Part shown: positions 1 through 21,989 of the stretch, piece after piece | Position numbering within the stretch: the stretch's first letter is position 1 | How the letters are laid out: every line of letters starts with the position of its first letter | From: a virus | Taxonomy: Duplodnaviria > Caudoviricetes | DNA: 25,102 nucleotides | Virus record (IMG/VR): IMGVR_UViG_3300025007_000005 | Location: 1 to 25,102 of that record | Direction: 5' to 3' (one strand) | The notes under the pieces: generated by a model | Database searches by the model: none | Told to the model about the DNA's origin: nothing | What the model saw: only the letters and a program-made list of their open reading frames with translations | Position numbers and translations under genes: made by a program

Positions 1-110
1 GAACGGCGTGTGGTTGGGCAGCATGATCCCGCCCGAACCGATGAGGATGGTCGAGGTGGCATTGCCGATATGTGCGAGCACGACCGAGGTCGCGCCGCCT
101 GCAATCCCGG
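1..110 (-). pseudogene. Host LLM-class flavin-dependent oxidoreductase (luciferase-like, YhbW-type); fragment interrupted by the prophage
   Basis: The minus strand reads GIAGGATSVVLAHIGNATSTILIGSGGIMLPNHTPF, matching the luciferase-like monooxygenase signature (GIA..ATSV...IGSGGIMLPNH). The resemblance stops at ~110, where the upstream EHH motif and N-terminus are missing. Confidence 0.8.
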
Positions 111-16241: not shown

Positions 16242-16591
16242 AGAACTTTGTCGCCATAGATTTTGCCTGCAACGATCCCGACAGCGGCCTCTTCGCCGGT
16301 CGCGCGAGCGCGATCACATATGGCGATGCCGAGATCGAGGCTCAGAATATCGATGGGTTCAAGTTCACTTGGCTGGACGGGGCAATCCGCATCCATCGAG
16401 AAGTATTCGCAATCGAAGGGTGCAGCGAATGGGTCGGCAACTGGTGCTGGAACCGGTTCATCTTCAGACGAGACGTCGCGAAGAAGCTGCTTTTCACGCT
16501 CCGTGCCAATGGTTGGCGGGTCACCTGCGGCCCCTCGCTACTCTATAGCTGGTTTAACCGTAGCAATTCCGTTGGGATTTCGACCCCATGA
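16238..16591 (+). CDS. Inserted hypothetical protein (117 aa, Trp/Cys-rich)
   Basis: GTGA/ATGA coupling on both sides. Visibly more AT-rich codons than its neighbours. Confidence 0.7.
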   Translation: MKNFVAIDFACNDPDSGLFAGRASAITYGDAEIEAQNIDGFKFTWLDGAIRIHREVFAIEGCSEWVGNWCWNRFIFRRDVAKKLLFTLRANGWRVTCGPSLLYSWFNRSNSVGISTP

Positions 16592-18282
16592 TCGAGGCGG
16601 ACGCCCTGCCCACGGCCGACCAGGCGCCGCCGCGATCGCCGATCGACGATTGGGTGCCCGGCATGGTGCCGCCAGCCGATCTGGACCCGCTGGCCGATGG
16701 CATCTTGATGGCGCACCAGAAGGCGTGGATCGAGGACACATCGCCGCTGAAGCTGGCCGAAAAGGGGCGACGAACGGGCATCACCTTTGCCGAGGCGCTG
16801 GATACGACGTTGATCGCGGCTGCAGCCAAGAGCGCCGGTGGGGATTCGACCTATTACATCGGCGACACCAAGGACAAAGGGCTGGAATTCATCAGCACCT
16901 GCGCGGGCTTTGCCAAGCATGTGGCCAAAGAATTCCTGGCGATCGACGAATTCCTGTTCGACGACGTCCAACCAGACGGATCGAGTAAACAGATCGCCGC
17001 CTATCGCATCCGCTTTGCATCGGGGCACGTGGTGGTCGCGCTATCCAGCAACCCGGCCAATATCCGCGGCCTGCAGGGGCGCGTGATCATCGACGAGGCG
17101 GCATTCCACCGCAATGTGGCCGCGGTGATCGATGCCTGTAACGCTCTGCTGATCTGGGGCGGCGTGATCCGGATCATTTCGACCCACAACGGCAACCTCA
17201 ACCCGTTCAACGAGCTGATCAAGGAAACGCGCGCCGGCCAGTACGACTATTCGATACACACCATCACCTTCGACGATGCAGTGGAGAACGGCCTTTACGA
17301 GCGCGTGTGCCTGATGCGCGGTTGGGAGCCGAGCCCGGAAGGCAAAGCCGAGTGGTACCGGAAGGTTCGCCGTGCATACGGCAGCCGGGCGGAAGCCATG
17401 CGCGAAGAGCTGGACGCCATCGCGCGTGAGGGCGAAGGCGTATTGCTGCCACTGGCGTGGATCGAGAAGTGCAGCACCGACCGGTACCAGGTGCGGCGCT
17501 GGACATCGCCGGCGAAGGACAGCGCGGTGGGCGAATTCGTCCACTGGCCCGAGCGCGTGCGCCGCGCCGAAATGCTGTTGTGGCTGGAAGAGCAGGTCCG
17601 CCCGGTGCTGAAGGCGCATGCGGGACAGGGCTACACCTGGTTCTTGGGCGAAGATTTCGCCATGCGGCAGGACCGCACCTGCCTGGCACTGGGGTTTACC
17701 GACCAGCAGTTGAAGCGGCACGTGCCGCTGATCATCGAAATGGCGCAATGCCCATACGACCAGCAAAAGCAGGCACTGTTCTGGGCGGTCGACCTGGTGC
17801 AGGATCTGAACCGGTTCGGCGGCGGAATACTGGACGCAAACGGCAATGGCATGGCGCTGGCGCAGGAGGCCGCCCAGCGATACGGACCCGACCGTATCGT
17901 GGAGCTGATGCCATCGGATGCCTGGCGGCGCGAGACCGGGCCCCGGTTCCGCGCGGCATTCGAGGACGGGACGATCCTGATCCCCGCCGATCTGGATATT
18001 CGCGGTGACCTGCGCCAGCTGCAAACGATCGGCGGGGTGGCCAAGATGCCCACCCATATCCGCAACGAAGGCACCGATGGCGGCAAGCGCCACGGCGACG
18101 GCGCGATCGCGCTGTGGAATTTCCACGCCGCCACGATGAACGAGACGATCCCCGAATATGCCTATCGCGCGGTCAAGACCGGCGGTGGGACGGGCCACGA
18201 CAGTGATGACGATGACGATGGCGACGGCCGCAGCTGGTGGCGCCCGCCACTGGGCGCGGGCCGCGGAATGGGCGCGATATGA
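16588..18282 (+). CDS. Terminase large subunit (Mu gp28-like)
   Basis: EKGRRTGIT, NIRGLQGRVIIDEAAFH, ISTHNG, GEDFAM..D and HGDGAIA. Confidence 0.95.
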   Translation: MIEADALPTADQAPPRSPIDDWVPGMVPPADLDPLADGILMAHQKAWIEDTSPLKLAEKGRRTGITFAEALDTTLIAAAAKSAGGDSTYYIGDTKDKGLEFISTCAGFAKHVAKEFLAIDEFLFDDVQPDGSSKQIAAYRIRFASGHVVVALSSNPANIRGLQGRVIIDEAAFHRNVAAVIDACNALLIWGGVIRIISTHNGNLNPFNELIKETRAGQYDYSIHTITFDDAVENGLYERVCLMRGWEPSPEGKAEWYRKVRRAYGSRAEAMREELDAIAREGEGVLLPLAWIEKCSTDRYQVRRWTSPAKDSAVGEFVHWPERVRRAEMLLWLEEQVRPVLKAHAGQGYTWFLGEDFAMRQDRTCLALGFTDQQLKRHVPLIIEMAQCPYDQQKQALFWAVDLVQDLNRFGGGILDANGNGMALAQEAAQRYGPDRIVELMPSDAWRRETGPRFRAAFEDGTILIPADLDIRGDLRQLQTIGGVAKMPTHIRNEGTDGGKRHGDGAIALWNFHAATMNETIPEYAYRAVKTGGGTGHDSDDDDDGDGRSWWRPPLGAGRGMGAI

Positions 18283-18409: not shown

Positions 18410-19981
18410 ATGACGGCGCTGGTCGATCAATGGGGCAATCCGCTGCGCAAGGCAGTGCTGACCCGCGAAGTGGCCGGCCCCACGCTGGCGGGCGTGCGCC
18501 AGCCGATCGCCGGCTACCCGGCCGATGGGCTGAACCCTGTTCGTCTGGCCAATATCCTGCGCGAAGCCGACCAGGGCGAACCGCTGAGCTATTTCGAGCT
18601 GGCCGAGCAGATCGAAGAGCGCGATCCGCATTACGTGGGCGTGCTGGGCACACGCAAGCGCGCGGTCAGCCAGCTGGACATCACCGTGGAACCGGCATCG
18701 GACAGTGCGGAAGATCAGCGCCGTGCGGACATGGTGACCGAATGGCTGAAGCGCGACGAGCTGGCGGACGAGATGTTCGACATACTCGATGCGGTGGGCA
18801 AGGGTATTTCCTTCACCGAGATCATCTGGGAAGTCAGCGAGGGCCAGTATCTCCCTGCCCGACTGGAGCGCTGCGACCCGCGGTTCTTCAAATACGATCG
18901 GGACGGGCGCACGCCGCTGCTGCGCGGGGGTGAGGACGGCAAGGGCCAGGACAGTCCTCTGCCGGCGTTCAAGTTCATCCAGATGCAGATCAAGGCGAAG
19001 AGCGGGCTGCCGATCCGATCGGGACTGGCGCGGATTGCCGCGTGGAGCTGGATGTTCAAGGCCTATACCCAGCGCGACTGGGCGATCTTCACCCAGACCT
19101 ATGGCCAGCCGATCCGCGTGGGCAAGTATCACGCCGGCGCCAGCCAGGACGATCGCGACACGTTGTATCGCGCGGTGGCCAATATCGCGGGTGACTGCGC
19201 GGCGATCATCCCCGAAGGCATGGACATCGATTTCGTCGAGGCACAGAACGTTTCGGCCGGATCGGCGCTCTACGAAAAGCGCGCCGACTGGCTGGACAGG
19301 CAGATCTCGAAAGCCGTGCTGGGCCAGACCAACACCACCGATGCGCAGGCAGGCGGGCTGGGATCGGGCCAGGCAGACGCCCACAACGACGTGCGCGAGG
19401 ATATCGAGAAGGCGGATGGTAAGAGCGCCTCCGCCGTGTTCAACCGCGACCTGGTGCGCCCATGGTGCGATCTCGAGTTCGGGCCGGGCAGTGCCTATCC
19501 CAAGGTGACGATCGCACGGCCGGAGCAGGAAGACCTGAAGCTGCTTTCGGAAAGCCTGAAGGAGATGGTGCCGCTGGGCCTGCGCGTCAGCGCCACCGAG
19601 ATCCGCAGCAAGTTCGGCCTTTCCGATCCGGGCGAGACGGACGAGATCCTGACCGCGCCAGCATCGGCGCCAAACGCATTCGATCCCGCCCGGCCCGGCG
19701 CCGATCGGAACGCGTTGACGCTGCATGCGCGGCAGAGCCCGAAGCATCCGGCCGAGATCATCGCCCTGCAGCTGGCGGACAAGGGCGACACCCATGTGCG
19801 GGAGATGGCGAGCACGATCGAGACGATGCTGCAGCGCGCCGGCGACTTGCATGAATTCCGCGCCATGCTGGCCAGCGCCTTCGGGGACATCGACAGCGCC
19901 GCCTTGGCCGACGTCATCGCGGGCGGGCTGGCGGCCGCGCATGCCGCCGGGCGGAGCGACGTGGCCGACGAGAGCGCCTGA
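18410..19981 (+). CDS. Portal protein (Mu gp29, DUF935)
   Basis: EERDPHY..VLGTRKRAV, DWAIFTQTYGQPIRVGKY and ISKAVLGQT. Confidence 0.95.
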   Translation: MTALVDQWGNPLRKAVLTREVAGPTLAGVRQPIAGYPADGLNPVRLANILREADQGEPLSYFELAEQIEERDPHYVGVLGTRKRAVSQLDITVEPASDSAEDQRRADMVTEWLKRDELADEMFDILDAVGKGISFTEIIWEVSEGQYLPARLERCDPRFFKYDRDGRTPLLRGGEDGKGQDSPLPAFKFIQMQIKAKSGLPIRSGLARIAAWSWMFKAYTQRDWAIFTQTYGQPIRVGKYHAGASQDDRDTLYRAVANIAGDCAAIIPEGMDIDFVEAQNVSAGSALYEKRADWLDRQISKAVLGQTNTTDAQAGGLGSGQADAHNDVREDIEKADGKSASAVFNRDLVRPWCDLEFGPGSAYPKVTIARPEQEDLKLLSESLKEMVPLGLRVSATEIRSKFGLSDPGETDEILTAPASAPNAFDPARPGADRNALTLHARQSPKHPAEIIALQLADKGDTHVREMASTIETMLQRAGDLHEFRAMLASAFGDIDSAALADVIAGGLAAAHAAGRSDVADESA

Positions 19982-21270
19982 TGCCCGAGGATACCGGCCA
20001 GCATCCATCCGGCGTATCGGGCGCGCTGGGGCGGCCATTCACCGAGCAGGTGGCCTTCTTCCGCCGCAAGCTGGGCAACCAAGTGCCGACGCAAAGGTGG
20101 GACGATATCACCGGTGCCGCGCATGACGATGCGTTCATGGTGGCCGGCGCGGTCAAGGCGGATCTGCTATCCGACCTCGCGGCCGCGGTAGACAAGGCGA
20201 TCAGCGAAGGGCGCGGGATCGAGGAGTTCCGCCGCGACTTTCGCGCGATCGTGAAACGCCACGGCTGGACGGGATGGGCCGGTGAAGGCAGCACGGGGGG
20301 CGAGGCCTGGCGGGTGGGCGTGATCTACCGCACCAATTCCTACACCAGCTATGCCGCCGGCCGGTATGCCCAGCTGCAGGCAGGCAATTTCCCCTGGTGG
20401 GTCTATCGTCACGGCGGCAGCCTGGAGCCGAGGCCGCAGCACCTGAGCTGGGACGGCACGCCCCTTCCCCCCGATCACCCGTTCTGGAAAACGCATTACC
20501 CGCCCAGCGACTGGGGCTGTTCCTGCTATGTCGTGGGGGCGCGATCGACGCGCGGCATCAAGCGCGTGGGCGGCGTGCCAGGCAAGCAATTGCCCGATGG
20601 ATGGAATTCACGAGATCCGAAGACCGGGGCGCCGCCCGGCATCGGCAAGGGATGGGATTATGCGCCCGGCGCCAGCGTTTCGGAAACCGTCCAGGCGATG
20701 GCGCGCAAGGTCGGCAGCTGGGAATACCAGATCGGCAAGGCCTTCATGGCCAGCCTTCCGGCAGAGACTGCCGATGCGCTGGCCGACAGCTATCGCGCGC
20801 TGCCCGGCACCGCCACCGACACGCGCCGCTATGCCGCGCAGGTTCTGGAGCCCAAGCAGAACCTGCCGGCACCGCCCGCGCGCACGCTGGGAAGGCTGCG
20901 CAGCGACCAGGCGCGCATCATCGAAGCCGAGCTGGGCCGATCGGTCGAGGGCTTCGATTTCAGCCTGGACCCTTCGGCAGTGGGCCATGTGCGCGGCGAG
21001 CATGGCAACCCGCTGAAGGAATGGCGCAGCCGCCAGCGTGCGGTGACGATTGCCGACTATGCGCAGCTACCGCGTGTCGCCAGTTCGGCCGATCTGGTCC
21101 GGTTACCGCAAAAATCGGATATGGGCGAAGATCTGTTCGAACAGCGCCTGACGATAGGCAACGATACTTTCGTGGCGCGCTGGGTGGCCCGCGGCAGGTT
21201 GCGCCGCACGGTGGCGCTGAAGACCTTGTTCATCGAAGTGGAAGAGCGCGGCCCGAAGCCCACGTCCTGA
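19981..21270 (+). CDS. MuF (gp30) head morphogenesis protein with a C-terminal PBECR-like nuclease extension
   Basis: AFMVAGA, IYRTN, RPQHLSWDG, HPFWKTHYPPSDWGCSC and GWDYAPG. The extension (aa ~301-429) has AVGHVRGEHG, QRAVTIADY..LP.V and VALKTLF. Confidence 0.9.
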   Translation: MPEDTGQHPSGVSGALGRPFTEQVAFFRRKLGNQVPTQRWDDITGAAHDDAFMVAGAVKADLLSDLAAAVDKAISEGRGIEEFRRDFRAIVKRHGWTGWAGEGSTGGEAWRVGVIYRTNSYTSYAAGRYAQLQAGNFPWWVYRHGGSLEPRPQHLSWDGTPLPPDHPFWKTHYPPSDWGCSCYVVGARSTRGIKRVGGVPGKQLPDGWNSRDPKTGAPPGIGKGWDYAPGASVSETVQAMARKVGSWEYQIGKAFMASLPAETADALADSYRALPGTATDTRRYAAQVLEPKQNLPAPPARTLGRLRSDQARIIEAELGRSVEGFDFSLDPSAVGHVRGEHGNPLKEWRSRQRAVTIADYAQLPRVASSADLVRLPQKSDMGEDLFEQRLTIGNDTFVARWVARGRLRRTVALKTLFIEVEERGPKPTS

Positions 21271-21309
21271 TCCGTTCCCGGTTATTGGCCGGGCGGCCCG
21301 ATCCGCGCC
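21245..21309 (-). ncRNA. Predicted structured antisense small RNA over the MuF-toxin 3' end
   Basis: Closing stem GGCGCGG/CCGCGCU, hairpin CCCGG-CCAAUAA-CCGGG and hairpin ACG-N8-CGU. Lies downstream of a TTGAGT-N17-TATATC promoter. Confidence 0.5.
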
Positions 21310-21315
21310 AGGAGA

Positions 21316-21344
21316 GATATAGGCATGTTCGATTATGAACTCAA
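21316..21344 (-). promoter_or_regulatory. Antisense sigma70-like promoter
   Basis: -35 TTGAGT (21344-21339), 17-nt spacer, -10 TATATC (21321-21316) in a GCCTATAT context. Confidence 0.55.
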
Positions 21345-21816
21345 CGGCGAGGCAGCGCGCAAGGCCTTGCGCGAGGCGATGGAGCGCCTGGACGACATGA
21401 CGCCGGTCTATACCGATATCGGCGAATATCTGCTGGAACAGCGCCGCGCGCGGTTCCGCAGCGGGACCGACCCCGATGGCAAGCCCTGGGCACCCAAGCG
21501 ACAATCCACGCTCGATCGCTATAAACGGCTTGGCTACGGCACGCTCAATCGCCCTTTGATAGGCCCTTCAAAGGCGCTTTCACGGCAGATCCAGCGCATC
21601 GTCAGCAAGGATGGCGTGGTGATCGGATCATCGCTGGCCTATGCCCGCACGATGCAGGAAGGCGCTGCCAAGGGTGCTTTCGGCAGCGATGCCCGCGGCA
21701 ACCCGCTGCCCTGGGGCAATATCCCGGCGCGGCGCTGGCTGGATCTGTCCGACGAGGAAGAGCTGGAGATCGTGGCGATCGCCGAAGAGCACCTGGAAGG
21801 ATTGCTCGAGCAATAG
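21325..21816 (+). CDS. Virion morphogenesis protein (Mu gpG/gp31)
   Basis: RFRSGTDPDGKPWAP, IGSSLAYA..MQEG and PWGNIPARRWL. GGAG RBS. Confidence 0.9.
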   Translation: MFDYELNGEAARKALREAMERLDDMTPVYTDIGEYLLEQRRARFRSGTDPDGKPWAPKRQSTLDRYKRLGYGTLNRPLIGPSKALSRQIQRIVSKDGVVIGSSLAYARTMQEGAAKGAFGSDARGNPLPWGNIPARRWLDLSDEEELEIVAIAEEHLEGLLEQ

Positions 21817-21935
21817 GCGTGGCGCACGCCGCATCCGACACAAGCGCATTGCCAGCAACCCCGAAGCTGTGGCAGCCAGATGGCGGCCGCGCGGCGAATC
21901 GCTGCAGGCCGATCCCCCACAATTAATCGTGCTGC

Positions 21936-21956
21936 TGCCCGCGCCCGCGGGCATGC
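21936..21956 (+). promoter_or_regulatory. Late-promoter activator site 2 (PI-like)
   Basis: Identical to 12330-12350. Starts 54 nt before the protease ATG. Confidence 0.75.
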
Positions 21957-21989
21957 CATCGCCGTGCGCGCGGTGCCAATCAGGCTTTC

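Follow-up and report, generated by a model that had tools for sequence, protein, structure and literature searches.

Comparison of a Mu-like phage with its relatives points to a small structured RNA on the strand opposite to the gene of the MuF minor head protein, at the 3' end of this gene. We propose that this RNA of ~65 nt, made from a host-type promoter, is probably an antitoxin which binds and blocks a predicted tRNA-cutting nuclease of the virion and thus replaces an immunity protein. The antisense element as such is very probably real. Sequence comparison gives a covarying fold, its strand, a promoter-like motif, a tie to the nuclease domain and the absence of the element where a histidine of that domain is lost. 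The evidence that goes beyond chance comes from the relatives and not from the copy with which the analysis is concerned.

The MuF locus and its predicted nuclease domain

The window, i.e. the whole stretch of DNA examined, comprises 25,102 nt (positions 1-25,102 of the IMG/VR record IMGVR_UViG_3300025007_000005, a Caudoviricetes virus). The record is a Mu-like phage, and the genes around MuF match Portal_Mu, Phage_tail_S, Mu-like_Pro and gpT in a Pfam search. The closest named relatives are found in Sphingomonadales genomes. The protein-coding features of interest are:

19981..21270, plus strand: MuF minor head protein gene, 429 aa (PF04233 at aa 67-184, E 5e-12), with the portal gene on one side and the gpG-like gene on the other
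20881..21240, plus strand: PBECR3-like predicted RNase domain, aa ~301-420 of MuF (H336, H341, Q352, D359, T415), assigned by a PF18812 match below the cutoff, invariant residues and a structure model
21325..21816, plus strand: gpG-like virion morphogenesis gene (PF05069, E 2e-22; from the ORF list)

The MuF gene shows the architecture of MuF polymorphic toxins, a MuF domain followed by a C-terminal extension and adjoining the portal gene. The gpG-like gene starts 54 nt past the MuF stop and sits where an immunity gene would be expected. Elsewhere in the window a 173-nt gap (21817-21989) separates the gpG-like gene from the protease gene, and a 564-aa ORF at the terminase position (16588-18282) has no Pfam match at E 0.1.

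The C-terminal domain of the window protein matches PF18812 (PBECR3) with E 3e-4 and 21.2 bits, below the curated cutoff of 30. Several relatives pass this cutoff, among them the nearer relatives L019 and L021 with 52 and 44 bits. In the domain model (pLDDT 86) a helix is followed by strands, and the closest solved folds are BECR toxins with modest scores (BrnT as the best, Z 6.6; CdiA toxin 5.7; RelE 5.6); a Foldseek search with the model gave no match at E 0.001. Active PBECRs are described as having a histidine and a C-terminal Ser/Thr, and the domain of phage Mu was called inactive (Iyer 2017, PMC5512222). The window domain retains H336, H341 and T415, that is, the histidine and Ser/Thr signature. 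The same paper considers that PBECRs may spare tRNA and favours mRNA or CRISPR RNA as targets; the part of its text examined names no RNA partner, and 'noncoding RNA' has 0 occurrences there. A representative-protein search yielded 198 matches, which come without DNA context.

A predicted structured RNA on the minus strand

The predicted RNA was followed with model R1, which was built from the aligned copies described below and covers two hairpins only. The parts of the RNA in the window are:

21245..21309, minus strand: predicted small RNA body, 65 nt, with a terminal stem, an internal loop, an inner stem and a three-way junction; the only R1 match in the window, and itself a training member of R1
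21277..21293, minus strand: anticodon-like arm, a 5-bp stem with the 7-nt loop CCAAUAA, identical to the initiator tRNA-Met arm at 14 of 21 positions
21262..21275, minus strand: core hairpin CG..CGU, imperfect in the window copy and common to both RNA forms; across the aligned copies the first pair is C-G in 60/61 and the second G-C in 61/61, and the third covaries

The three-way fold drawn in the preliminary description is indeed the minimum-energy structure of 21309-21239. Its overlap with MuF exists as well, but it covers 26 nt (8 codons and the stop, for the body 21309-21245) and not ~9 codons. Taken alone, the window copy is within chance (z -0.48; 58 of 200 shuffles fold as well), and its folding energy was rejected as support since it is not significant. 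Structures were predicted and counted as nested only.

Several other identities were considered. Rfam at the gathering score had no match at the window element and 0 in 20 loci, and in 16 loci it had a single match, of the tRNA model to an RNA of a different class. A hammerhead or other known ribozyme was rejected for want of an Rfam match, and ARAGORN called no tRNA at the element. The RNA of AbiF contains abiF motifs, an Rfam family; no match of that type was found at the window element or in the loci scanned. An antisense ORF of 68 codons (21263-21057) was rejected because its GTG start is absent from the eight close relatives.

The conservation of the element is visible already at short distance. 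When the window is compared with eight close relatives, the element has 2 variable columns out of 65, and the flanking coding DNA has 19/95 and 18/73 (pooled flanks 37/168; Fisher p 3e-4). At larger distance, 301 MuF loci were gathered by protein only, and the 280 with a complete 3' end form 170 clusters at 85% identity, 76 with a PBECR3-like domain and 94 without it. The loci were collected via the N-terminal motifs of MuF, as alignments of the domain only were too diverse, and were ranked by likeness to the window protein, because of which the clade of the window is enriched. An antisense element of ~70 nt is present in 71 of the 76 PBECR3-like clusters: 61 copies share the architecture of the window copy and were aligned, 2 were found by R1 and 8 are permuted and were judged by eye. 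R1 misses most permuted copies (10 matches in 47 sources; none in L481-L483). A loose regular expression for the core was too permissive (26 of 94 controls) and was left out of the final counts.

The 61 aligned copies are diverged, with a median length of 72 nt, and of 482 cells across the two arms 90.5% are paired. Covariation, the check which the preliminary description had proposed for its fold, is provided by 94 two-sided compensatory cells; none of 500 shuffles pairs as highly, and slid controls reach 29-49%. The shuffle control ignores relatedness and the structure comes from the same alignment, so this result is strong, yet it is not a probability. All five pairs of the anticodon-like arm show two-sided changes within the family. 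The terminal stem was tested apart and gives -25.6 kcal/mol with its own partner versus -15.4 with others; the own partner ranks first in 32 of the 61 copies and third or better in 46. In 48/61 copies the fold on the minus strand is better than that on the plus strand, and a U-rich tail follows the element in 20/61. The overlap with coding sequence is at most 3 nt in 23/61, 4-15 nt in 22 and larger in 16, and a read-through mRNA is still overlapped. Type I (antisense) antitoxins are marked by extended complementarity to the leader or coding region of the toxin mRNA.

The predicted promoter

Two hexamers upstream of the RNA body make up the promoter-like motif, which is sigma70-like:

21339..21344, minus strand: predicted -35 hexamer, TTGAGT; it shares positions with codons 5-7 of the gpG-like gene (TTGA at 16-18 nt in 37/61 copies)
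21316..21321, minus strand: predicted -10 hexamer, TATATC; it overlaps the RBS-ATG spacer of the gpG-like gene (58/61 copies have a TA hexamer 2-12 nt ahead of the stem)

The letters TTGAGT-N17-TATATC read earlier on the minus strand are there (21344-21339, a 17-nt spacer, 21321-21316). Across the relatives the -10/-35 motif keeps the same register, which agrees with that reading: in the 61 aligned copies the distance from the TA hexamer to the stem has its mode at 6-7 nt, and the TTGA found 16-18 nt above the TA hexamer peaks at 17, while shifted windows give 1/61, 0/61 and 0/30. A scan for consensus promoters and terminators between 19500 and 23000 returned 0 matches; it finds no promoter because the -10 of the window is without its final T. 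This T is absent in most alphaproteobacterial promoters (PMC8407463). On the minus strand of the whole window, 4 places fit the looser pattern TTGA-16..18-TA: the one described here and those at 19443, 15255 and 2180.

In the window's form the conservation of the promoter is confounded, because the motif overlaps the gpG start. An independent set was obtained by a DNA-only motif search in which the -35 was not a selection criterion; 120 of ~190 stretches were examined, 40 with short flanks. With near-copies collapsed, a -35 match is present at 23 of 32 domain loci in this set versus 7 of 33 others (p 6e-5). Therefore, the doubt over the overlap with the gpG start is mostly removed. Several copies from this search lie inside long ORFs and carry an exact TTGACA at 17 nt, and strong promoter matches also occur without any overlapping gene start.

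Likeness of one arm to initiator tRNA-Met

The preliminary description saw the geometry of an anticodon arm with AAU as the middle triplet. The geometry holds for the family (usually 5 bp and a 7-nt loop) but the triplet does not, the commonest one being CAU. In the 61 copies the seven loop columns are C/U in 55, U/C in 51, C in 33, A in 43, U in 47, A/G in 57 and C/A in 46. Six copies have no 7-nt loop and were dropped; the remaining 55 arms were compared over 21 positions with the 43 distinct arms of one Novosphingobium genome. Initiator tRNA-Met is the best match for 33.3 of the 55 arms (ties shared), with a mean of 12.7/21 against 9.5 for the next tRNA, and no tRNA stands out in the reverse-complement control. 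The likeness of the flagged arm to an anticodon arm is thus real in this structural class. The window arm itself matches initiator tRNA-Met at 14/21 and the next best at 11; the 14 is not high in absolute terms, as host tRNA arms match one another at 15.3 on average.

The likeness has clear bounds. Approximately 12/55 loops deviate from that of the initiator at four or more positions, and 0/55 are identical to a loop of that Novosphingobium genome. U33 together with A38 occurs in 1/55 copies versus 29/43 host arms; instead, 23 copies have U33 with C38 and 16 have C33 with A38. These changes at 33 and 38 amount to few events, because they largely follow two clades. Colicin D cuts between positions 38 and 39. 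All six loops with G36 also carry G37, and several resemble tRNA-Pro; Pro-like copies include L207, L210 and L382. For the AAU and GAU loops the tRNA that is imitated may be Ile, since the host set stems from one genome and is without tRNA-Ile(GAU). The element has the anticodon arm in common with bacterial initiator tRNA-Met but has no D-arm, no canonical T-loop and no CCA end. The CCA with which the RNA ends in the preliminary description is lost in 5 of the 8 close relatives, and only 4/61 copies have a CCA no more than 2 nt from the stem; a tRNA-like CCA end was rejected. Between L266 and the tRNA-Met of the same genome the arms are identical except for 1 of 17 bases, and the L266 element lies ~20 kb from the tRNA-Met gene with that anticodon arm (G004:C9:52356 and 72609).

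The permuted form and other RNA classes

In the permuted form a closing stem stands where the anticodon-like arm would be, while the core hairpin and the G-rich/CAU internal loop are kept. The arm is therefore not the universal core, and any mimicry is not universal either. Since the permuted form does without the arm, the core hairpin and the internal loop are likely the protein-binding core and the arm an added contact. At L084, L089, L091, L098, L105, L132, L135, L148 and L481 long ORFs contain the whole of the permuted RNA together with its promoter, on the opposite strand of the linker that follows the PBECR3 domain.

Many of the 94 other clusters (with nuclease-like tails of the MuF_C, PBECR2 or unassigned type) have, as judged by eye, antisense stem-closed elements of their own with -10-like motifs; peptidase-like tails have longer gaps with space for an ORF. 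A second class is a highly conserved antisense multi-arm element of ~105 nt on the minus strand past the MuF stop, behind tails with an SFRR-like motif. It occurs, mostly in Rhodobacterales, at L219, L221, L223-L225, L234, L235, L244, L248, L259, L268, L310, L317, L397, L399, L400, L410, L427 and L068; some tails with an altered SFRR-like motif (L227, L228, L237) are without it. A third class, also past the MuF stop on the minus strand, is a near-complete cloverleaf with a tRNA-type T-arm (L023, L027, L042, L236, L269, L272, L286), of which L286:1577-1650 exceeds the Rfam tRNA cutoff with 33.3 bits; its nuclease tail has no Pfam match. Further distinct antisense elements stand behind MuF_C-like, unassigned and PBECR2 tails (L026, L261, L270, L334, L340, L408; L050, L055, L064, L066, L070, L071; L045, L047, L404).

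Association of the RNA with an intact nuclease domain

The histidine equivalent to H341 is kept in 71/71 of the element-bearing domains and in 0/5 of the element-less ones, and the one equivalent to H336 in 67/71. On the domain tree, the 5 element-less domains and 2 further decayed ones require 3 changes, of which 2 or more are forced; this tree is a quick one with the decayed rows on long branches, and the rows without RNA are neither significantly clustered nor dispersed on it (49 of 500 shuffles as low). Six of the seven decayed-domain loci abut gpG (gap -3 to 4 nt) and the median gap with the RNA is ~82 nt. Most short MuFs abut gpG too (median gap -3, 15/18 measured), and in phage Mu the MuF gene overlaps gpG by 4 nt. 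Gaps reach 150 nt at 3 of the 71 element-bearing loci; these gaps, and the 54 nt found here, leave no space for a downstream gene of protein immunity.

Only 2 of the 94 other MuF loci have R1 matches, and both are PBECR3 remnants, one frameshifted and one a cassette swap. In the swap (L416:2730-2990) a different MuF tail and a small ORF are inserted, and the last ~20 PBECR3 codons and the RNA remain before gpG. The RNA persists beside deleted or frameshifted domains at L416, L249, L159 and L196; it can outlast the domain, as the remnants in L416, L159 and L196 keep it.

The DNA-only search approached the same tie from the other side. Among its 86 distinct loci, 39 have the domain just upstream on the same strand, and 37 of these lie within 17-56 nt. 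The RNA tracks the domain across MuF, portal, solo and long-protein contexts. Three named phage records (a portal fusion, a solo gene and an unannotated one) were found by protein alone and missed by R1; by eye they show the core hairpin, the closing stem and the promoter-like motif. Rhodobacter phage RC1 carries the element as well. At L080, L127 and L131 the core hairpin and the promoter stand behind domains outside the PBECR3-like profile, which are perhaps more distant nuclease families.

Proposed role of the RNA

An RNA antitoxin is the likeliest role because the gaps have no space for an immunity protein, the RNA is lost together with the histidine and the conserved loops imply recognition by a protein. 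We suggest that the predicted RNase domain is active, is carried in the head and is delivered on infection. The RNA would be produced at any time when intact phage DNA is being transcribed, that is, in the lysogen and early after entry, and it would bind the nuclease via the core hairpin and the internal loop that both forms share. In the window's form the extra arm may mimic the substrate, for which initiator tRNA-Met is the likeliest candidate; the loop of the arm, with its change at 33 or 38, would allow the RNA to be bound but poorly cut. That initiator tRNA-Met is the target of the nuclease is put forward tentatively, on the likeness of the arms.

As an alternative, the RNA could protect the phage independently of MuF, serving as a decoy for anticodon nucleases of the host or for tRNA-fMet toxins. 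The initiator-like arm and the survival of the RNA next to domain remnants fit this idea, VapC is known to target tRNA-fMet (PMC7180214), and defence tRNases are reportedly evaded by phage tRNAs (PMC11555353). However, a general decoy is hard to reconcile with an RNA that tracks one domain across four protein contexts and is absent where the histidine is lost, or with the different RNAs behind other MuF tails; we consider it unlikely. A cofactor, guide or packaging partner needed for the action or loading of the nuclease would be lost jointly with it just as an inhibitor would, and the invariant core nucleotides imply protein recognition in this case too. No variable guide segment is seen, however, and self-protection would be left unexplained where an immunity gene fits no gap (3/71 reach 150 nt), which makes such a partner improbable.

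The RNA could also silence MuF, either by antisense pairing, which the preliminary description offered as an option, or through transcriptional collision with late read-through. The convergent orientation, the 26-nt overlap of the window copy and the copies inside long ORFs speak for it, but an overlap of no more than 3 nt in 23/61 copies does not suit pairing as the main mechanism, and pairing needs neither conserved loop identity nor a fold. This explanation is therefore quite improbable. The structure could also act in the plus-strand late mRNA, in processing or in the control of gpG translation, with the promoter match as a by-product of the gpG start: the stem stops just ahead of the gpG ribosome-binding site, and both -10 and -35 overlap the gpG start. 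The better minus-strand fold of 48/61 copies, a tRNA likeness confined to that strand, strong promoter matches free of any overlapping gene start and the dispensability of the structure in short MuFs all count against it, and we regard it as very improbable. A chance fold in GC-rich DNA, which the z of -0.48 of the window copy would allow, is contradicted by the covariation (90.5% pairing, 0/500 shuffles), the conservation and the linkage to the domain and can practically be dismissed.

Relation to known systems

An RNA antitoxin would resemble the type III systems ToxIN, CptIN and AbiQ (PMC5086642), in which an endoribonuclease has an adjacent structured non-coding RNA; here such an RNA is predicted to hold it. 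The type III RNA is described there as an array of tandem repeats that precedes the toxin within the same operon, with a terminator between the two, whereas the RNA found here is single-copy, downstream, convergent on the opposite strand and under its own predicted promoter. Type III RNAs are also pseudoknotted, and they neutralise their toxin through direct binding. Furthermore, the putative toxin here is predicted to be BECR-like (PBECR3 by Pfam; fold matches Z <=6.6) rather than of the ToxN/CptN/AbiQ type and is fused to a head protein, and the predicted RNA is a three-way junction. AbiF and its RCd22 RNA (PMC12373285) offer a second parallel, a type III-like system with a prophage toxin and an adjacent non-coding RNA that binds it directly; AbiF is Cas13-related and is described there with no virion fusion. 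The working mode would therefore resemble type III and AbiF, with a gene layout that differs from type III.

The protein side follows the MuF polymorphic toxins (Jamet 2017, PMC5576092), where MuF and a variable, toxin-like C-terminal domain come directly after the portal gene, and the cassette exchange at L416 belongs to the same likeness; the small downstream ORF for protein immunity reported for those toxins is missing here. The domain is of the same class as the PBECR of polyvalent proteins, with the histidine, the C-terminal Ser/Thr and the fusion to MuF or portal (Iyer 2017, PMC5512222). Several unrelated RNA folds tied to one protein domain in either orientation are known from the DUF3800 RNA motifs (Weinberg 2017, PMC5737381); the protein is different here, and these loci have no Rfam match. 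In the literature search, which covered main texts without supplements and few subscription papers, no description of the RNA was found.

A wider scheme, doubtful as a whole, would have temperate phages carry a family of virion-delivered tRNases with tRNA-mimic RNA immunity, one RNA class for each nuclease family, retargeted via the arm that is mimicked, which would be that of initiator Met here and Pro-like elsewhere. With the antidote read from the incoming DNA by the host polymerase, a genome that is destroyed or silenced would leave a free nuclease, so that resistance would meet a penalty delivered at entry and lysogens would be immune.

Head proteins and polyvalent proteins of phages often carry PBECR domains, for which the portions of the literature examined give only predicted targets and name no self-protection. 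The finding offers a candidate antidote and a predicted substrate, initiator tRNA-Met. If true, RNA antitoxins would act not only on toxins of the ToxN and AbiF types but also on BECR nucleases, a tRNA look-alike that mimics the substrate would be added as a mode of inhibition, and polymorphic toxins could use RNA immunity. Several uncatalogued candidate RNA families are added as well, some of them hidden within coding sequence.
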